From Spironucleus salmonicida (lineage: Eukaryota), in NCBI RefSeq assembly GCF_000497125.1, contig NC_090601.1, forward strand, positions 310,001 to 374,000: a stretch of DNA of 64,000 nucleotides. Reading direction: 5' to 3'. The notes beneath the pieces are model-generated. The model made no database searches. It was not told the origin of the DNA and saw only the letters and a list, made by a program, of their open reading frames with translations. Positions 6,009 through 48,751 of the stretch are shown in pieces (positions within the stretch are counted from its first letter, which is position 1; the number at the start of each line of letters is the position of its first letter). Both the position numbers and the translations under genes were made by a program.

Positions 6009-7196
6009 TCAAAAAATTATTGTTAACAACATAAATAAGAGCACTAATTTCACACCTAAAAAATTGATAGGTAAAGTATAAATTATGATAAGCCAGCTTG
6101 AAATAAAACAAACTGCAATTTTGAGCTATTTCATAATATTAACATGGTGTTTTTCATTTAGAATATCATATAAGCCTTAAACAACGCCAGAAATAAACCT
6201 ATTTTTGAAATACCGCACAAGAGCTAAATAACCGTCAAAAAACTTATCTATACACATTTTGCGACCTGTCAAATTCTGAATTAACTTCTACTAGCACGTG
6301 CCAACGTACAGACGAGAAAACACATAATTCATCCTGAAGCTGTCCAGACGGTCCCCGCCTAGCGTGCTGTAAAACTCGCTCTAGAGGACCCCTGTGCGGT
6401 CGATACAGTCCAGACAGTTGATCCGCGGGATCTCTCTCTGCACGTCCACTCGTAGGACCCCTTTAACGTAGTCAGCGCAAAATCCGGCCAGCTCAAGCTG
6501 CGTCGCTCTGTGCAGGTCAATTTTGATAGTATTTGGGTACATGCCGCTAAAGGCCTCGCTCAAAGCTAGCTGACCGCCACGGCCCGAAAGGAGCGAAATA
6601 GGTCGAATTTTCTGATCCAAACGGAAGCCGAAATCGCTGCCGCCAATTTCGATTTTGGGCGTGAACTTGAGGCCCGGCCGCTGCTCAAATAGCAGTGGAA
6701 TGCTGCCTCGGTGCAGCTCAAAAACGCCGTTCTGCGTGTTGATGTGGACCTGAATTGTGTTCACCGGGTGGCCATCCACGAGGCCACGGAAGAAGCGCGT
6801 GTAGAGCGCCGATACGAAGAAGGCATCTGCGGTTGGTGAACGGTGCATTAACGTGCAGGGGAACTGGACGAATGCCGTTCGTGTGGCAAAAAATTAGCGC
6901 GGGGGGTTCGGATGGAAGTACAGGAGGTGTTTTATTGACTTTACAGCAATGGAGAGTAAAAATGGTGGTTTTGGGATAATTTTATAGCTTTTAATACGTA
7001 CTGGGACTTACTGAGGATCTTATTTTGAAATCAATAGGTGGCTGATATTTTTGTAGGTTATTTAACCAAAAACTGTGAATTTTGAAAATGAATCACGCTT
7101 TAAGGGGTTCTCAATTTCTGAAATTTTGGACTTGTAAGAATAAAACTTATCTTGCTATGAAAATAATTATAACCTTTCGGATAATAGAATTGACAT
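6009..7196 (-). CDS. SAC1: Sac1-like phosphoinositide phosphatase with C-terminal transmembrane segment, 395 aa
   Basis: RGSIPLLFEQRP and RINCLDCIDRTGVLQ (CX5RT catalytic motif of Sac phosphatases); hydrophobic tail IAVCFISSWLIIIYTLPINFLGVKLVLLFMLLTIIF*. Confidence 0.88.
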
Positions 7197-7235
7197 TTAA
7201 AAAGTATGAAAAATATTGATATACATATATATAAA

Positions 7236-9560: not shown

Positions 9561-10874
9561 TCACTAAATCTCCCAACTTTCAACACTGTGCACCTCGCTC
9601 TCCTCCTTTGCGATTTCGCGCATGACCTCGCTCACAAACGTTTCAATTTCGTCGTTACCAGCTCCAAACTCGACACCGTCACCCAAGAGCGCGCCGATGG
9701 ATCCAAGCACCGCATCATGTGATAGGAAAATTCCATCAATACCATTCTCAGCCAAAACACGTTGAATCGACTCCTGGACTACCGGTTGGTTGCTAATGAA
9801 TCCACCCGCGAAAACGACCCGCGTGAGGTGTTTGATTTTACAGTTCAGGCAAGCAAGCTGTGCGGCATTTTCGGACACCATTTCTGCTAGCGCGGCCACC
9901 ACATCCGCTTTTGCGAACTCATTTTAGAAAATAGGAGCAGAAAACTAGGCGCCGTTGAACTAAAGCTTGCTGGCGTGCCCCTGTGTCTCCAGCTTTAGGA
10001 GTTGGTCGAACTCGCAGTGCGTGAGCAATTTAGCCAGGTTCAGAAAAACACCTCCACCCAGAGCTGAACCATCTACCCTCACGATATTTTGCTGTGTGAC
10101 GTGCAGAATCGAGATTCCCGACCCTATTTGCACTAGGAGGCAGGGGTAAAGCCAGGAGACATCGTATACGTATTTGCTGAGGCTTGCCGACTGACTATGC
10201 TAAAACCAGTTGATTTTTTGCTGAATAGCATCTGATGGTTAGTGGTTTTCGAAAAATCTAGAATCAAAATTGAGGCGATGTGGTTGTTGTAGGCACGAAA
10301 CTGGAGCTTTCCCGAGAAGTGTATACACTTCATTTTTAAGCTTCAGCCCAGTTAAAAACATCATACCCTTGTGAAGCGACTGTATCTCGTCGAATTAACT
10401 GATTGAGTCAAAGTTTGTGCGCTCAAGTAACTGTGTCCTAAACTTAACAGCTCCACCACCGGTACATCTGAGTTCCTTTTTGTAAGAAAATGGGAAGTTG
10501 TGGACATTCAAAAAATTTATTAGCATATTAAAATCTGTTTATTAGAAAAAGAAAAATAAGAACTTACCTCGAATAACATGCGATGTGAAAGAATGCTAGG
10601 GTTAAAAAAGGTGGATAAATTGCTATTATACTTTAAATAGGTATTTATCAGGTATATAAATGCAAAGCTTCATTAGTGTACCTCCAAGATCAATTGAAAC
10701 TAGTGGGCACTCTTCAATAAGCAGTTCAGTTAATTGATTATAAAGCCTGGCTGATGCGGCTTTAAGCTTTAAATTTGGTGAAGCTATTGGGAAATATTTT
10801 GTCTTGTAATAAAAGAATGACTTCAGAAACCAAAATGGCTTGATAATAAGAATTAGAAAAGGCTGAAAGATCAT
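9561..10874 (-). CDS. PANK: type II pantothenate kinase (fumble family), 437 aa
   Basis: SIDLGGTLMK, CTGGGAVKF, YPCLLVQIGSGISI, DGSALGGGVF, VVFAGGFI, FLSHDAVLGSIGALL. Confidence 0.92.
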
Positions 10875-15329: not shown

Positions 15330-16205
15330 TCACTTCTTAGCCTTCTTGATGAAATAATAAGCTAAACCACCACCAACTGCACCAACTACAACCAATACTG
15401 CTATTACAATTCCAGCTACAGCGCCTCCTGAAAAATTAGAACTATTACCAGAGGATGATAATGGTAAACAGATTGCAGCAACTTGTTCATATCCAGCTGC
15501 ACAGTCAATACAATTACCTTCAGTATTAATAACATATCCTGCTAAACATGTTGCACATTAGGTTTTATCATCATTACATGTCGCGCATCTAAACATATTT
15601 GCACATTTGCACTAGGAAGTAGAGGAAGCACTGCAAGTAGCTAATTTTCCATTATCGCAGAATTACCCATCCGCAATACCAGCACACTTTGCAATACATC
15701 TTCCATCAATAGTAGTCACAGGTTTTGTTTTGTCTCCTTAGCATTCTAGACAAAAGGTAGCAGATGTGCAGAAACTACAGTCTTATTAGCAAGGTTTGCA
15801 ATGTTTTGCAATGAAATTACAGTAACCAAGTCCAAAACCAACACATTCTTTATGATTGACACATGATTTTACACAGGTTTTAGATGTTGGCTCTACAATA
15901 AATCCAGTTTCGCATGCAGTACATTCATTTTCGGTTCCTTCACAAGATTTACAGTTACTGTCGCATATGGTGCATTTTTCTGTAATATCTAAGAAATAAT
16001 TAGTTATACAAACGGAACATTTTCCATCTTTACACTATTAACAATTTTTAGTCGATACATTTTCTTTACAATTACAACCGTATCCAGTAATAATTGTATT
16101 ATCAGCACAAGGCTTACAATCAACGATATCTATATCAAGAGTAGGACAATATGTATCTGTTGCGCACTTATTATCATTTTCTTTACACTTTCCACTTTCT
16201 ATCAT
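15330..16205 (-). CDS. cysteine-rich membrane protein (Spironucleus CRMP1 / VSP-like), 291 aa
   Basis: Many CxxC/CxC motifs; C-terminal [28 protein letters not shown] transmembrane helix followed by KKAKK*. Confidence 0.92.
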
Positions 16206-17417
16206 TTTATATTTTTTATATTTTTAAAGATGGATAGCATTGCATATATTGAGTTTTAGATTATTAATTTTAAAAATATTAATTTTAATTATAAATAAAT
16301 GCATATTATTGTATTAAAAAAACTGAGATCACTTATTATTTTATTAATCTATATGTAAATCAACATATTTATATATTTCGAAAAATTGCTGACTGAACTA
16401 AATATTAATTAAATTGCAATATTATACAATATTATAAGTAGTGTGCTCAAATTATAAAAGCTTAATACATTACTTCAACTTCTATCTAGATTTAATATAC
16501 TTTGTTCAAACATTTCCAACTATTGAAAAAAAATAAGTAACTAATATTATTTTGCATTACTATATGTTAATTTGTGAGAAAAATCTGTCTTTATAGTAAA
16601 TTCTATATAAATAATGTTAATTGGATATATTGATGATCTTCTGATTATATTACTAGAAATATATTATGATCTGGTTAATATAATTATTATTAATATAGTT
16701 ACGCGTAGTTTGCATTTTTAAAGAGTCGTTCGTAAGATCAAACAAGTTTCGTATTTTAAATTTGCATATAATAATAATATATAAATTAATTATTTATATA
16801 ACTACTTACTTATCTCAAAAAATAACATCTATTTTCAGATAATTTAGATAGGGGAAGCAAATGATACACTTTTAACTTATATTCTTGCTCTAAAACCTAA
16901 CTGTATATAAAAGTTTTAATATGTTATCAATTAACTTTCAATACGATATTCCGTAACTAGATTCTAATAAATCTAGATAAAGATAATTTTTAACACTTTA
17001 ATCAAAATATTGTAAATTAAATTAGATTTTATTTATCTTTTATACAGAATTACTACTTTAAATTACTGTGTTTATTTTTAATTAATACCTCGATTTAAAA
17101 TAATTTTAATGCAAATAAAAATTTCAATTGAGTAATTTTATAGTGGCACGCAATTTTAGATATCAATACTATGCACTATTATTTACTTTATTTTAAGTCT
17201 TTCTATGAAAGTAAAAATTAATGTAAACGTTTGAAGATGCTGATAACCATAAATTAGTAATTTATTACTTTGTTAATCACCAAAAATTTTACAAATGTAA
17301 CTAGATAACTAATTAAAACACTAAATATTATCATATTATACATATTTCCTAAGATAAACCCAATACTACAAAAACACCAAAATCATTAACCTAGGGCTCA
17401 GAGAAATTATTAAGCGA

Positions 17418-39906: not shown

Positions 39907-40001
39907 TTTAAGAATTAGTAGTATCTATATTATATATTATTAATCCTATTTTTAGATAATTAATATTAATATTATTGTATTATAAAAATTGTAAGCTGAA
40001 A

Positions 40002-41351
40002 ATGGCTTAAATGATACTAACAATTTAATTACTTACTTGTGAAGTTAATTATGTTATTTTTAATCCTATTATTTACTTAATTGATATAAATTTAACATGT
40101 AATTGGCAAAATATAACTTTTATGCTTGAAGTAGGAGACTAATAGTAACAATTCGAAAAATAGATTACCTAAATATAGAATCCAGCTTTCTAGTTTTAAA
40201 TTCTACACAAAACACTACCACTGTTTCTTAATATTTACTAAGGTGATATTTAACTTTAGCAGCTACAAGTCTACTAATTTAAAACGGTTATTACAAATCC
40301 TATCACGTGTATATAAAATCTTTTTGTATCCTAATCTTAACTTAAATCATGGTTATCCATTTAGGGAAACTTTACAAAATGTGTATATGATTTTAGTATA
40401 CTAAATTGGTATTTTATGATAAATTAGGTATCTTTGAAGCTTAAATTCAACTAGAGACCTTATTATTCAGAAGAAGTATTGGGAGACATATTTTATTATC
40501 CAATACTATATGTTGAATGTAAAGATGATTAGAATTGTCAGTATGCTCTGGAAAATATCTATCATTTTGAGTAGTAGCTTATTCTAAATGTAGGCAAAGT
40601 AAACATTTCATACAAAAACCTAACAATTTTTACTAATCCTAATAACTTTAATATTGAAATGTAGATAAATAATAAATCAGTTGACGGGGATGTAGATTTT
40701 CAGTATATTTGGGGGTCTATTTATGTTAGTACCAGCCGAATAATGAGATATATCAATACTACATTAGATGCCACATTAATTAAGATGAGTATATTATTGT
40801 ATTCTTCTAATATATCAATTACACTAGTTAATAGTTATGATAATATTTAACAATTTTTAAATCCGTTTCATTTCTTCATTTGTGAGGAAGAATGCTTAGC
40901 TTTAAGGAATTAAACTTACTCAGCAATAATAAAATTCGATTATTTCTTACGAGATATCTTGGTTCAACATAATTCGTTTTATATGAAAAAGTAACCCTAT
41001 TTTCCAGTTAATATACGAATTGATAGTAATTAAATCAATGTTATTTCAGATTTTATTTCGCCTAATAATATAAGTCTCCTTTTTGGAGACTCTATTCTTA
41101 TCCCATTTGAGAAATATATGGGGTCGGGTTTCCGTCCTATGAGTGAAGAAGGTAAAAAGTAGCTAAAACGTTATCCATAACTTTTGTAAAAATACAATAA
41201 ACTTATTGTTATCTTAGAGAACCAGAATTAATCATTTTTCGTTAACAATATTCAAACTTTTACCATTAATTTTCTTATTTTAATTTTAATGGGTTCCGTA
41301 ATTCTTGTTACAACATCATTAGTCATGTTCATGTTATGGAAATTAAAATGA
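40002..41351 (+). CDS. single-pass membrane protein (~449 aa)
   Basis: Short hydrophobic N-terminus (second ATG 40011) and C-terminal TM FLILILMGSVILVTTSLVMFMLW followed by KLK*. Confidence 0.72.
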
Positions 41352-41715
41352 GCTGTAGTAGGAGTAACTATAGTTTATGGAGTATTGTAGTATTAGGTTA
41401 AGGTTAATAATATTTTCTGATTATTAAATTTACAAAGTAAAATTTCCTTAACCCTTTATCATGTATTTATAACCCTTTTATGTAATTAAGCTTATATATT
41501 TTACGAGAATAGCTCTAATATAAATTTTATTAACCTATTTATTTAGTTTTCTTTAACATATTTAAATCAACTGAATAGATATAGTATTTCCTAGTTACAG
41601 ATTTTAACCTCTAGTATCAAAAATACCGATGCAAACTCCTTTTTCAAAGTACTAATAAATCAATTTGTAATAATAAATTAATGTTATCCTATTAATGTAA
41701 TATTTAAAATTGAAC

Positions 41716-42258
41716 TCATATTTCTACTCCACCCCTTCCTCTTACACTTCCAACTTTCCATTCTTCTGAATCTTCAACTTCTAAACAGATCAAATTATCG
41801 TCCAAAGTAAGCAAAAAATTAGGCTGAACTTCATCCAAAATACATATACTATAACTACTGCTATTACTCATATTAAGTTTCTTGAATTTTGGTGCCGAAT
41901 TTTCATGTTAAATTGGTCGTTTTGGAGATGTTTAAGGTCGTTTTGGCATTCTAAACTAGCCTGTAAACAGCGGAGTTTGTAGTTGGGGAGGGGAAGTTTT
42001 CAATTCAATTTAAATATGATTTTCTATTTTTTTAAAGTTAAAACTAATAGTGGTTAAAACAAAGTCTTATGGTAATTCTTAGGCCCCAGCGGCTTTTGTT
42101 CTTGCAATTTATCGCTTTGCTGTTTTTCCTACAGTTGGAGGTTTCGAAAAAATAGCATATTACGGTTAAAGAATAAAAGAAGTTGGAATTTAGGCAAAAT
42201 TTGAGCTATAGAATGCCAGTTTTTATGTTAGTGAGCAAGCAGATTTTGGGCGGTTCAT
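41716..42258 (-). CDS. hypothetical protein, 180 aa
   Basis: Continuous frame MNRPKSACSLTQK...VRGRGGVEI*. Confidence 0.65.
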
Positions 42259-42493
42259 TTACTAAAATATTTAGTATTTATACGTATATAATAATAGATC
42301 TCCGGTTTTTAGTATATGGTAAAATAGAGAATAAATAAAACAGCTAAGAGATAAATTATATAGTATCTGATAAGTGCTTGCTGTTATTTATTAATAACAG
42401 TTTATTAAGAGTCAGTAATAGTATTAACAAATATATTTTAAATAAATTATATAATAATATAATATTATTTACTTTCCGCACGCCTCTTCTTTC

Positions 42494-42958
42494 ATGTCAA
42501 AAACTCCCCCTAAATATGAAACAGACAAAGGTCGATAACGCTTTGAAAGACCGAAAAAAATTTCAAGGTTATAATTATTAAGTGAAGAAATTGTTAAATC
42601 TAGTAATACTCCACAACAATAAGTATTCAAGTACCGCTACCCGCAACCGAAAACTGACGTGAAGGCCGGCTCAAACTAGTGCTTCATAAATATGATGTTA
42701 TCACACTCGGCAATCTATTCGGCATTCTGTTACGTGACGCGCAAGAGGATATCAATCGTGCCGAGTAATTTGTTGGATGTGTTAGCTGTTAAATCCACAT
42801 CGTACAATGTGCTACTAAACTAGGAGTAGAAGTCACTACTTTGGATCAACGACCGCAAACTCCCGGAGAGGGTGATATTGATTGATGCCATTCTGTAGGA
42901 GCCAGGTCTAAACGATACGTGGATTGCAAAACTGAATGCTATGAAAACCTAAAAGTGA
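42494..42958 (+). CDS. chimeric hypothetical protein, 154 aa (46 unique aa + 108 aa from the duplicated arm)
   Basis: C-rich motif before ATG; frame crosses the repeat boundary at 42631/42632 and ends in AAGTGA. Confidence 0.65.
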
Positions 42959-42977
42959 TTCTGTGTGCCACTCCAAA

Positions 42978-43334
42978 ATGGACGCCAACCATATAACATA
43001 AACATCTATTCAGCATATTTACAAGCTCAACGCCCTACGGTCGACGATTGCCTTAGAATACGAGAAGATATCCAGAGATATTCAGGAGTTACGTCGCATT
43101 TAGGTTGAGCTAAAGCTTCCATTGAGTCTTGCGATGAAGACTCTAAATGACCTCATGGTTGAAAAGTCTAATTAACTGCATAAGCTGGATCTGTAGATTA
43201 AGATGTTTGCACTCGCGTGCACACAGGCCGAGAAAACTCTCGAAGAATTTGCTTTCATGGGTCCGCTTATTTCTCGCATCACGTATCCGGAGGTTGCAGT
43301 ACGATCTAGAGTATTAGTTGAGTTCCGGAAGTGA
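42978..43334 (+). CDS. small coiled-coil hypothetical protein, 118 aa (copy 1)
   Basis: MDANHITQTSIQHIYKLN...VLVEFRK* with CCACTCC upstream and AAGTGA stop. Confidence 0.72.
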
Positions 43335-43340
43335 TCACTT
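43329..43340. terminator. back-to-back AGTGA stop/polyadenylation signals of convergent genes
   Basis: Palindrome AAGTGATCACTT; stops at 43332-43334 (+) and 43337-43335 (-). Confidence 0.6.
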
Positions 43341-44426
43341 AAACCTCACCTCACCAATTTTATCCTCGATCTCGACACCTTTATACAGTATCTTCTAAAA
43401 TTTGCCTTTCATTATATGGTACATGAACAAATCCTACTTTGTTGGGGTCCCATAGAAGGTACCAACTGCTTAGTTGATAATGCTTCGATGCTCTGATTGA
43501 AATTCATTAAGATTCTCTAAAATTTTATAATCTAAACTATCAATTTAGTCCTATAACTTAGCTATAACTGGTCCTAAAACAAAAATTCCATAGTCACAAC
43601 ATTGATATTGATGCACTTCAGTATTTAAGTACTAAACTATCGGAGTTATCCCATCTCCCTTGTACATTGGCCCAGAATAAGAGTTTCGAACAAATTAGTT
43701 CCTGCAGCGAAGTAAGTTATCCACTTTATACGGTAAAAGATCGCATGTAGAATAGTGTTAAATAGTATCTTACGATAGTGGGACCTGTTGCTTTGTTTCG
43801 TACGGTTCATGTGTGAAAGAGAAAGTGGAAGATAGAGATGAGTGTGATATGATGATATCTGATGATAATCTAAACAATATGGCCTTATTCACACCATTCT
43901 CATAAAGAATTTTATCACCTTTAGTCATAACCACATGCCTTTGATCTAAATTCTACAAAGAACATATGTGATAGAATGCTCTAAGCGATTAAAAGCCTGA
44001 GAAATCTCGAGGTATACTCATTGTAACAAACGAGGTAAGAACACGTGAATCATGTTAACATAGTTATAAAAATGGTCGAATATAAAATTCAACAATAGCA
44101 CGAGCCATTCGAAACCCGTACTACATGTTTATCTAGCCTATAGTTTACAAATAGATTTGAAGATAAGATACTATTGCCTATGTTAACGCAAAATCATCAG
44201 TAATTACTAATAGTTATTCCCATTACTTAATATATGCTGTTTTATCTGAAAAATTGATCTACTCAAGCGGTGAAGGTCCAAACTATAGAGATAATTAAAA
44301 AGCTGCTGTAAAATATGATGCCTCTCTTATTTAAGATTCAATATTCTATACTGATTCAATATAGAGAATCTAATTATCTTTTGTAAACTCATCTATGATA
44401 TTTTCTGGAAGCAAAATATAAATCAT
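43335..44426 (-). CDS. hypothetical protein, 363 aa (copy 1)
   Basis: MIYILLPENIIDEFTK...IGEVRFK* continuous frame, AAGTGA stop. Confidence 0.78.
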
Positions 44427-44469
44427 TTAAAGTTTAGATATATTATGAATAATATATATGATATGTCAC

Positions 44470-45204
44470 TCAAAGGAACCCATCCTGGAAAGCCTTCCTC
44501 ATATCATCTACGGCGTTTTAATTCATCTATAAACCAAATATAGCTTATACTACGCCGATTTCAGTATTACTGCAATCTCTACCAACAAATCCAACGAAGT
44601 CATTGACAAGGATGCCACCAGAGACCAATTAGCCACCCTTATTTACAGTACCTGAACACACAGGGACACCCAAAAGGGATGCTAATTCTTCTTACTCTTC
44701 CCTGGATACATTGGATCCAACTAAGCATCCCTTATTCGTTACTTTCATGAGAGAACCAACAAGACCAACTCCACCCACGGCGTGGCGAACTACCTCTACG
44801 CCTAAAGCATCAGCTACTACTTCTTCAGTTTCACGCTCTGCATCAGGATGAATTAAGCAAAAATTATCATTACATGCAATAATGTTTCCTAATGCAGAGA
44901 GACGCTCATCAAGTTTTTAAACTACAACATCATCAGGAAGAGCATTCCTAATATTCAAAAATTCTGAATCCGTAACACCTGAAGGTAAAAGTAATCCTTT
45001 TGAGTTACCAGCACATAAGCGTCCTAATAACTTAGAGTTTGCAATAGTAGAGCGGAAAGCAGCCACACCATGTGGTGCTAATGTAGATTCGAGCAATGAA
45101 AAGTAATGAGCTGCTGGAGAAGGTGCAGAGATACAATAATTATTAGTCATTATAGCGAAGACACCGACATCAGGGGAGTTTTCAAAATGTGTTGTATAAG
45201 TCAT
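44470..45204 (-). CDS. EIF6: eukaryotic translation initiation factor 6, 244 aa
   Basis: FENSPDVGVF, GRLCAGNSKGLLLP, ERLSALGNIIACND, GTVNKG, FVGRDCSNTEI. Confidence 0.96.
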
Positions 45205-45261
45205 TGACAGGAAGGGTAAGTGAAAGGGATTTAAAAATAAATATGAAAATAATAATATATA

Positions 45262-46290
45262 TCACAAATATTTTTATGCGTCTTACTCACCAATTGCCTC
45301 ATAATAAAGCTCAAACAACATCATCAAACTATCTAATTTACTGTCATTATAATAAGGAATATCTAATAAAGTACAAATAACCTAAAAATACTAAATTACG
45401 TCTAATTATATTTATGCAGTAGGAAGTAATATTTATTTAACATCATCTTCAAACGTTTTATCGTACATTTCTAAGCATTGTTGATTAATGGGGTGTTTAT
45501 ATTCATATTTTTATGGAGATTTTTAATGTAATTATTCAATTTAAAAAATAAAATCATTTAAAGTTGATAAGTCTGTAACTATAGGTACTTCACAATATTT
45601 TTGGTGTTTTTAGTATAATTTTATTTATGTTTAGCTTAGTTTCGAGATAAGAACTACTTTATTTGATTAATTTATACAAGGTTCGTCTAATACAGATACC
45701 CCTATTTTATCAATTGAGTTATCTGGTCGAGGTAATTTAATATATGGATCCACTTCTCCTATAGAAGGCTAGTACTCTTAAAGAAACGGGACAAATAAAG
45801 TTTCCAATAACATTTCAGTAGGTTAAAATAGTTTATACATATTAATTAGGTCATCATTACTTAATTAAGTGAAATCTAAATCCACGGATTATTCTTCACA
45901 TTAAAGTATATATTTAGTCTAGTTTTGATTAACACGAGAAGATATATGATGCTCATGATGAATAATACCTTCAGTTTATTCAGATAATTAATTAATATTA
46001 TTATTTTGCACTACATCTTAAATTTCATCTTACAGGTTTGCACTAGATATATCGTTATTATATTTTTATTAACATCCATTTTATAATTACTCTGGTGAGT
46101 TAAACAGTTTTTATGAATTGATTATTTCCTCTTCCTAGTCACCTTGGCTGATCGAATCAGAGATTGATGGCGTGGAAGATACAGAATTTCTTAAGTTGCG
46201 CATAATTACAGATTCTAAAGAAGATGGTGCATTAATTTAATATGTTTCATCCATGGAATCTCGAGGCTTTGTTTTCTTAATCGATGCCAT
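45262..46290 (-). CDS. hypothetical protein, 342 aa, in the spacer of the inverted repeat
   Basis: MASIKKTKPRDSMDE...GEQDAQKYL*; frame arithmetic consistent. Confidence 0.72.
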
Positions 46291-46392
46291 TTTAAAAATT
46301 TTATCCAGGAATACAATATAATTAATTTTAATATATTTTTATTTTTATCAATGAAAATTTAAATAGTAAAAAAATTATACCCGTATTATCAA

Positions 46393-46733
46393 ATGCTTTA
46401 GGCGTAGAGGTAGTTCGCCACGCCGTGGGTGGAGTTGGTCTTGTTGGTTCTCTCATGAAAGTAACGAATAAGGGATGCTTAGTTGGATCCAATGTATCCA
46501 GGGAAGAGTAAGAAGAATTAGCATCCCTTTTGGGTGTCCCTGTGTGTTCAGGTACTGTAAATAAGGGTGGCTAATTGGTCTCTGGTGGCATCCTTGTCAA
46601 TGACTTCGTTGGATTTGTTGGTAGAGATTGCAGTAATACTGAAATCGGCGTAGTATAAGCTATATTTGGTTTATAGATGAATTAAAACGCCGTAGATGAT
46701 ATGAGGAAGGCTTTCCAGGATGGGTTCCTTTGA
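46393..46733 (+). pseudogene. 5'-truncated eIF6 copy (last ~113 codons)
   Basis: ALGVEVVRHAVGGVGLVGS...FQDGFL* lacks the N-terminal half; nearby ATGs at 46351 and 46393 are out of frame. Confidence 0.88.
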
Positions 46734-46776
46734 GTGACATATCATATATATTATTCATAATATATCTAAACTTTAA

Positions 46777-47868
46777 ATGATTTATATTTTGCTTCCAGAA
46801 AATATCATAGATGAGTTTACAAAAGATAATTAGATTCTCTATATTGAATCAGTATAGAATATTGAATCTTAAATAAGAGAGGCATCATATTTTACAGCAG
46901 CTTTTTAATTATCTCTATAGTTTGGACCTTCACCGCTTGAGTAGATCAATTTTTCAGATAAAACAGCATATATTAAGTAATGGGAATAACTATTAGTAAT
47001 TACTGATGATTTTGCGTTAACATAGGCAATAGTATCTTATCTTCAAATCTATTTGTAAACTATAGGCTAGATAAACATGTAGTACGGGTTTCGAATGGCT
47101 CGTGCTATTGTTGAATTTTATATTCGACCATTTTTATAACTATGTTAACATGATTCACGTGTTCTTACCTCGTTTGTTACAATGAGTATACCTCGAGATT
47201 TCTCAGGCTTTTAATCGCTTAGAGCATTCTATCACATATGTTCTTTGTAGAATTTAGATCAAAGGCATGTGGTTATGACTAAAGGTGATAAAATTCTTTA
47301 TGAGAATGGTGTGAATAAGGCCATATTGTTTAGATTATCATCAGATATCATCATATCACACTCATCTCTATCTTCCACTTTCTCTTTCACACATGAACCG
47401 TACGAAACAAAGCAACAGGTCCCACTATCGTAAGATACTATTTAACACTATTCTACATGCGATCTTTTACCGTATAAAGTGGATAACTTACTTCGCTGCA
47501 GGAACTAATTTGTTCGAAACTCTTATTCTGGGCCAATGTACAAGGGAGATGGGATAACTCCGATAGTTTAGTACTTAAATACTGAAGTGCATCAATATCA
47601 ATGTTGTGACTATGGAATTTTTGTTTTAGGACCAGTTATAGCTAAGTTATAGGACTAAATTGATAGTTTAGATTATAAAATTTTAGAGAATCTTAATGAA
47701 TTTCAATCAGAGCATCGAAGCATTATCAACTAAGCAGTTGGTACCTTCTATGGGACCCCAACAAAGTAGGATTTGTTCATGTACCATATAATGAAAGGCA
47801 AATTTTAGAAGATACTGTATAAAGGTGTCGAGATCGAGGATAAAATTGGTGAGGTGAGGTTTAAGTGA
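46777..47868 (+). CDS. hypothetical protein, 363 aa (copy 2)
   Basis: Inverted copy of 43335-44426; translated fully without internal TGA. Confidence 0.78.
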
Positions 47869-48225
47869 TCACTTCCGGAACTCAACTAATACTCTAGATC
47901 GTACTGCAACCTCCGGATACGTGATGCGAGAAATAAGCGGACCCATGAAAGCAAATTCTTCGAGAGTTTTCTCGGCCTGTGTGCACGCGAGTGCAAACAT
48001 CTTAATCTACAGATCCAGCTTATGCAGTTAATTAGACTTTTCAACCATGAGGTCATTTAGAGTCTTCATCGCAAGACTCAATGGAAGCTTTAGCTCAACC
48101 TAAATGCGACGTAACTCCTGAATATCTCTGGATATCTTCTCGTATTCTAAGGCAATCGTCGACCGTAGGGCGTTGAGCTTGTAAATATGCTGAATAGATG
48201 TTTATGTTATATGGTTGGCGTCCAT
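47869..48225 (-). CDS. small coiled-coil hypothetical protein, 118 aa (copy 2)
   Basis: Inverted copy of 42978-43334. Confidence 0.72.
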
Positions 48226-48244
48226 TTTGGAGTGGCACACAGAA

Positions 48245-48751
48245 TCACTTTTAGGTTTTCATAGCATTCAGTTTTGCAATCCACGTATCGTTTAGACCTG
48301 GCTCCTACAGAATGGCATCAATCAATATCACCCTCTCCGGGAGTTTGCGGTCGTTGATCCAAAGTAGTGACTTCTACTCCTAGTTTAGTAGCACATTGTA
48401 CGATGTGGATTTAACAGCTAACACATCCAACAAATTACTCGGCACGATTGATATCCTCTTGCGCGTCACGTAACAGAATGCCGAATAGATTGCCGAGTGT
48501 GATAACATCATATTTATGAAGCACTAGTTTGAGCCGGCCTTCACGTCAGTTTTCGGTTGCGGGTAGCGGTATTTCTCCTGTTTGGTATTAAGATAGTGTT
48601 TTTCTTGTTGTATCAGCTATAAATGTACTTATCCATAATGTGAAAATTCACCAATCTCAATCGGTTCAAAATCAGATATATCAAAATAAGCATCATCTGG
48701 AAAATGAGTAGGAGACAATGAATCTATTGTTAGACAAGTTTAACGTTCCAT
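48245..48751 (-). CDS. hypothetical protein, 168 aa (probable parent of the chimera at 42494)
   Basis: MERQTCLTIDSLSPTHFPDDAYF...KQEK|YRYPQPKTDVKAG...MKTQK*. Confidence 0.7.

Follow-up and report, generated by a model that had tools for sequence, protein, structure and literature searches.

A gene-bearing 2.2-kb inverted duplication in Spironucleus salmonicida with identical arms, probably old and most likely kept alike by mutual correction

A perfect inverted repeat around a short spacer lies within a 64,000-nucleotide stretch of the genome of the diplomonad Spironucleus salmonicida (contig NC_090601.1, positions 310,001–374,000; hereafter the window, whose own coordinates are used unless another contig is named). 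BLASTN comparison of the window with itself confirmed the repeat: positions 42632–44810 (left arm, + strand) are the exact reverse complement of 46393–48571 (right arm, − strand), with no mismatch and no gap over 2,179 bases. The initial annotation, made from the sequence alone, had described a 2.18-kb inverted duplication with a 1.58-kb spacer and no mismatch or indel at the positions it compared; these coordinates hold, and the identity extends over the full arm. The arm pair is the sole non-self BLASTN match within the window (the longest inverted match in the shuffled window was 32 bases), and elsewhere in the S. salmonicida genome assembly nothing closely matches the arm DNA. The spacer (44811–46392) is single-copy, 1,582 bp long and has a G+C content (GC) of 0.29, and the whole structure measures 5.9 kb. 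No NheI site occurs between 38485 and 52165. S. salmonicida is a code-6 diplomonad and the open reading frames (ORFs) of the window were read under NCBI table 6, which gives whole genes; a reading under table 11 gave fragments only and was dropped.

Each arm carries two whole ORFs of 118 and 363 amino acids (aa), the eIF6 gene from codon 132 onwards and, from a 168-aa ORF here called g4, the final 108 residues, while the spacer carries the 5' half of eIF6 and one more gene, which proved to be IFT46; this gene content agrees with that first read from the sequence. The intact eIF6 gene (44470–45204, − strand, 244 aa; PF01912, E-value 2.6e-65) runs from the spacer into the left arm, with the arm's inner edge at codon 132, and is the only full copy in the genome assembly. 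A second copy of its 3' half, identified by ORF reading, stands without its own 5' half at the inner end of the right arm (46393–46733, + strand); an open frame beginning in the IFT46 upstream region continues in frame into this copy (46167–46733), possibly by chance, as table 6 has one stop codon. IFT46, a component of intraflagellar transport complex B (45262–46290, − strand, 342 aa; PF12317, E-value 5.8e-37), has a GC at third codon positions (GC3) of 0.19. The 118-aa ORF (left copy 42978–43334, + strand, GC3 0.47; right copy 47869–48225, − strand) and the 363-aa ORF (left copy 43335–44426, − strand, GC3 0.28 and higher towards the arm's outer end; right copy 46777–47868, + strand) belong to no Pfam family, and their right copies were placed by ORF reading. 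The right-hand g4 (48245–48751, − strand) enters the right arm at codon 61, over that arm's outer edge; it matched no Pfam family and had no usable atlas match. It is a member of a four-member family in the genome assembly (five homologues in all), with paralogues at L001:4358–4873, L002:1076–1531 and L003 (C5:276163–276423).

Comparison of g4 and eIF6 across the arm edges separates native from non-native junctions. Two of the three g4 paralogues align through 48571/48572, which marks this outer junction as native, and eIF6 is whole only across 44810/44811; with these two native, the junction of the left flank with the arm (42631/42632), where the paralogues match the right-hand g4 version, and that of the IFT46 upstream region with the eIF6 3' copy (46392/46393) are non-native. 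The left g4 copy (42494–42958, + strand, 154 aa) reads in frame through the former junction, and the protein collection lists it as a gene of 154 aa; its 108 residues shared with the native copy follow a different 46-residue start, which has no match elsewhere in the genome assembly and only weak similarity to the native start. This ORF may be a fusion, or a paralogue with a strongly diverged 5' end. Gene order suggests an ancestor in which the right flank, the arm and the spacer formed a single block (g4, 118-aa gene, 363-aa gene, eIF6 and IFT46). Because the two native junctions sit on different arms, the spacer appears inverted relative to that block, a state present from the start or reached through an odd number of flips. 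Rebuilding the ancestral join of left flank to spacer produced no clearly restored gene.

Decayed homology beyond the present edges was sought at both the DNA and the protein level. For DNA, the score of the outer edge was reached by 71 of 150 shuffles and by 60 of 150 pieces drawn at random from the window, and that of the inner edge by 7 of 150 and 15 of 150, respectively. Edge-anchored protein comparisons under three gap settings were equalled by 20, 14 and 5 of 300 at the outer edge and by 5, 25 and 40 of 300 at the inner edge, and a profile of three g4-family N-termini set against the 46-residue left start was equalled by 1084 of 2000 shuffles and thus goes unscored. At most, these comparisons hint at an arm that formerly ran some 20 codons beyond its present outer edge. 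Where the arms end today may mark how far copy-correction reaches rather than where the original breakpoints lay.

Contigs of four sequencing runs, from a listing of eight runs in two studies under one organism label, were compared over 40000–46452. X1 and X2 are DNA-type runs (two of the four DNA-type runs listed) from one sample that is possibly the source of the assembly, and X5 and X6 are guessed to be RNA. In both X1 and X2 the arm forms one contig of exactly 2,179 letters, with a depth of 439 and 27 against 171–175 and about 12 for its neighbours; the excess is 2.3–2.5-fold, on a depth scale that does not measure copy number. Contigs of the left flank, of the right flank and of the spacer (the last 1,642 and 1,641 letters long) all run 30 letters into the arm, the spacer contig at both of its ends; this is one letter short of the 31 set as the rule for a bridge. 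Such an overlap would be the remnant of an assembly-graph branch, as expected for a two-copy unit with four junctions. Both native junctions are bridged far beyond 31 letters by contigs of X5 and X6, which join the eIF6 gene across the inner arm edge and extend from the arm into the right flank. No X5 or X6 contig covers bin 42376–42591, at the left g4 start, an absence that is not used as evidence. A one-letter deletion in IFT46 at 45543 is present in the X2 contig and absent from X1, X5 and X6.

These data bear on whether the repeat could be an assembly or fold-back read artefact. Perfect identity would be expected of one, the DNA runs come from a single sample, no record spans the whole structure and the two non-native junctions rest on the 30-letter overlaps only. 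Against this, the contig graph of each run branches at either end of exactly the 2,179-letter unit, with two different ordinary-depth neighbours at each end, and a fold-back read would not yield unique flanks on both sides. An artefact would also leave the steps in base composition described next without explanation, and we consider this account very unlikely.

The arms differ in composition from the DNA around them, with a GC of 0.374 against 0.272–0.285 in adjoining single-copy DNA and a GC3 of 250/680 against 2290/10913 in the rest of the window. The change occurs inside single genes: GC3 in g4 is 9/59 outside the arm (0.15) and 59/103 inside (0.57; Fisher p 1.7e-7), and in eIF6 24/129 outside (0.19) and 39/110 inside (0.35; Fisher p 0.005). 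Two g4 paralogues show no step at the matching column (13/60 vs 25/103 and 9/43 vs 24/102), and among overlapping windows of 15 non-arm genes, steps of that size numbered 0 in 431 and 3 in 381. The best change points fall at eIF6 codon 135, close to the edge at 132, and at g4 codon 56, close to the edge at 61. Codons for the same residue at which g4 carries G or C and paralogue 1 carries A or T, counted against the reverse, stand at 16:1 in the arm and 3:8 outside. When paralogue 2 is taken as reference, in-arm changes to G/C against those to A/T number 31:3 in g4 and 11:10 in paralogue 1, with all four types of A/T to G/C change seen in g4 (8, 8, 9 and 6). Derived bases common to both arms are thus skewed to G/C when judged against the paralogues. 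The excess over the background amounts to about 107 silent G/C bases in the arm, all of them common to both arms; allelic heterozygosity in S. salmonicida is reported as 0.09% (PMC9509377), far below this amount of change. The silent-site steps at both arm edges, inside single genes, speak against the initial annotation's view that the event is very recent.

The repeat is one of many. A 474-kb stretch of the contig (C6 110001–584000) was compared with itself, matches were merged by hand, and inverted pairs of at least 1.2 kb at at least 98% identity were counted, leaving out one 598-bp pair at 94.3% as well as direct repeats. This gave 11 inverted pairs including the present one, with arms of 1.3–16.5 kb, covering 21.7% of the stretch. 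In all 11 the arm GC exceeds both spacer GC and outer-flank GC (non-repeat DNA 0.285), the GC changes at the outer edge in 11/11 and at the inner edge in 10/11, and at four-fold sites both C and G are raised on both strands across the 11 arms. The repeats neighbouring the present one are 98–100% identical at GC 0.34–0.69, a further reason why perfect identity need not mean recency. The present repeat has the fewest arm differences (0; others 1–85) and the second-lowest arm GC of the 11, and may for these reasons be one of the younger ones. In the S. salmonicida reference as a whole, duplicated regions make up 19.2% at 44.7% GC, against 30.7% GC for the remainder (PMC9509377).

Other sequences on the contig also depart from the general composition. 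A tandem array at C6:197693–201956 (660-bp period, about 6.5 copies, 99.7–100% identical) has a GC of about 0.42 against 0.21–0.23 in its flanks, showing direct repeats that are GC-enriched too, and a direct duplication of about 12 kb (C6:112227–124014 and 145272–157059) falls in identity from 98% to 93% along its length. Within the window, 6009–7226 and 9561–10874 are single-copy stretches of raised GC (0.42–0.45 per kb) for which neither the window nor the 474 kb holds a repeat partner, and one of them is a pantothenate-kinase (Fumble) gene. Further on, the product encoded at 15330–16304 is a membrane protein rich in cysteine that weakly matches VSP.

On one alternative view, a stretch already rich in GC was copied very recently in a single step, by staggered break or template switch, and its copies have had no time to diverge. 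The absence of any difference in 2,179 bp, the low rank of the arm GC among the 11 repeats and the abrupt edges, past which no decayed homology is clear, are what such an event would leave, and the inverted spacer recalls Drosophila inversions duplicated at one breakpoint (PMC1885836). It would, however, need a GC-rich patch that ended within a few codons of both breakpoints inside two genes, and the same coincidence at every outer edge and at ten of the eleven inner edges on the contig. The staggered-break model moreover uses end joining, whose canonical form is reported to be absent from metamonads and whose alternative form from parasitic diplomonads as well; diplomonads reportedly rely on homologous recombination instead (PMC8516963). 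A search of the genome assembly for Ku (PF02735) gave no match, a weak test in which only 1 of 14 controls was recovered. A recent origin of this kind is therefore judged unlikely. Were end joining absent, as reported, the duplication would more likely have arisen by a replication- or recombination-based route; its geometry fits either the Drosophila staggered-break class or an inverted insertion that was copied from a template and later flipped.

Composition is also uneven within the arm. From its outer to its inner end GC3 runs 0.62, 0.48, 0.45, 0.33, 0.34, 0.24, 0.22, 0.27 and 0.35, reaching a minimum at background level at 44084–44325 (17/78, or 0.22) and rising again in eIF6; over the three outer arm genes the trend has a Spearman coefficient of −0.28. 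The outer fifth is GC-richer than the inner fifth in 8 of the 11 repeats of the contig. In a rough GC3 count by automatic frame calling, which recovered 16 of 18 known genes and under-read the present arm's outer quarter (0.37), the outer part was richer in 9 of 10, the eleventh repeat having no inner codons. Three other short-spacer repeats show a like dip in the fourth fifth of the arm. The gradient could point to an old, homogenised duplication whose GC was gained by some other process, such as repeat-directed mutagenesis or effects of replication origins or transcription, since simple conversion does not explain it. The four types of A/T to G/C change are nevertheless about equally frequent and both strands are affected, which argues against a single-base, one-strand enzyme, and the identity of the arms would require copying between them anyway. 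We regard a separate source of the GC gain as improbable.

Taken together, the data are best accounted for by an inverted duplication kept identical by arm-to-arm concerted evolution with G/C-biased repair, to which we assign a probability of roughly 0.76. The duplication is real and probably old, and its identity most likely derives from mutual correction rather than newness. A single block would have acquired, 1.6 kb away, a second and inverted version of 2.2 kb of its own sequence; thereafter a new mutation in one arm would be erased, or copied over, by homologous-recombination repair templated on the other arm. If mismatches were settled more often to G or C, the outcome would be identical arms with silent-site GC raised up to their edges. 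On rare occasions the reaction would end in a crossover, turning the spacer round but leaving the proteins unchanged. The genome assembly contains one Rad51-family gene. The presence of all four types of A/T to G/C change, together with the rise of both C and G on both strands, is as a general repair bias would give.

Several observations weigh against this account. Outside the arm, the count referenced to paralogue 2 is also skewed (9:1 in g4 and 9:2 in paralogue 1), which exposes a bias from the choice of sites, and for this reason only the contrast between lineages carries weight. The range of the g4 change point (codons 43–58) lies just beyond the present edge and that of eIF6 (123–230) is wide. 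A simple, uniform conversion acting over one age does not predict the uneven GC3 of the arm. The GC gain may also predate the duplication, and GC-rich DNA is perhaps more prone to palindrome formation (PMC8981503). No conversion event was directly observed.

Inversion of the spacer is geometrically possible, as predicted from the arrangement of the arms. The initial annotation had gone further, proposing that recombination between the arms would swap which eIF6 3' copy is functional and leave one intact eIF6 in either state. The latter part stands, with eIF6 otherwise single-copy in the assembly. As the arms are identical, however, a flip changes no protein: all four junctions and every ORF are the same in both states, and the structure is therefore not a switch. 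A programmed invertible switch choosing the eIF6 3' half has the geometry in its favour, with the eIF6 promoter and 5' half in the spacer facing an arm in either orientation. Both 3' halves and the 1.8 kb beyond them are identical, so that the same eIF6 and IFT46 result either way, and ten similar repeats lie nearby. No dedicated recombinase was found: tyrosine recombinases (PF00589) gave no match in the assembly (controls 14/14; serine recombinases were not searched genome-wide), and the 38 window sequences scanned, one of which was entered twice, held no recombinase or transposase family, in agreement with the first reading that none is encoded nearby. A switch is accordingly the least credible of the accounts considered, and we give it next to no weight. 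The contigs are silent on spacer orientation because both isomers, sharing an identical 2,179-letter arm, yield the same graph; no joint of left flank to spacer appears among the contigs listed, which drop rare variants. In Giardia many within-isolate inversions have been predicted from long reads (PMC7048089), and mixed orientations would consequently not surprise here.

The locus belongs with inverted repeats already known from other organisms. Primate X and Y palindromes likewise consist of gene-bearing inverted arms more than 99% identical around a single-copy spacer, with arms GC-richer than their flanks and GC-skewed replacements, and are homogenised by GC-biased arm-to-arm conversion (PMC8981503; PMC3723533). 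On one set of human chromosomes palindrome P6 showed 3 inversions against 56 conversions, inversion being a rare by-product (PMC3723533). The arms here differ in measuring 2.2 kb, in having edges that cut genes and in lying in a gene-dense protist with two diploid nuclei rather than on a sex chromosome. The GC contrast is also larger (0.37 vs 0.27–0.29, with neighbours up to 0.69, compared with about 46% vs 41% in primates), and conversion, observed phylogenetically in primates, is here inferred only. Caenorhabditis inverted gene pairs share the kilobase scale and an identity of up to 100% within species; once thought recent, they were shown by outgroups to be old (PMC1803023), while age at the present locus is read from base composition rather than proved by outgroup genomes. 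As in Drosophila staggered-break inversions, an inverted copy of formerly unique gene pieces lies at inversion ends, with duplication at one breakpoint only, as in 12 of the Drosophila cases (PMC1885836). Where the arms of the present repeat match perfectly, the Drosophila duplicates have decayed (about 88% identity), and the end joining on which their model draws is a pathway whose genes are reported missing here.

A further parallel lies within S. salmonicida itself, whose genome shows sharp GC shifts with high-GC3 genes and GC-rich duplicated DNA; the present locus is a mild case of these GC patches, with an internal gradient. Such shifts were described in 2007 as difficult to account for through mutation or selection (PMC1805757) and are weaker in S. 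barkhanus (PMC2874811). In their accessible text, accounts of the S. salmonicida patches leave the cause open and draw no tie to inverted repeats or biased conversion. Our literature search, covering titles and the beginnings of abstracts with most subscription papers outside its reach, likewise found no link between inverted repeats or biased conversion and Spironucleus GC islands.

As a single locus, then, the repeat is ordinary for the S. salmonicida genome. What it indicates is that perfect identity is no clock there, which makes calls of recent duplication in this species unsafe. With its short arms, its edges inside two genes and its paralogue controls, the repeat offers a clean site for testing biased conversion, and also flip rates, as the 5.9-kb structure fits within one long read. 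More tentatively, and as a picture that we think may well prove wrong, in S. salmonicida, lacking end joining, some fifth of the chromosome stretch compared here would consist of small palindromes that carry genes and repair one another, biased repair would turn these into the GC islands left unexplained in 2007, and their spacers would flip in living cultures as a side effect. The present repeat would then be an intermediate, and its gradient may record a directional process, with arms growing inward over time or mismatch repair concentrated towards their outer ends.

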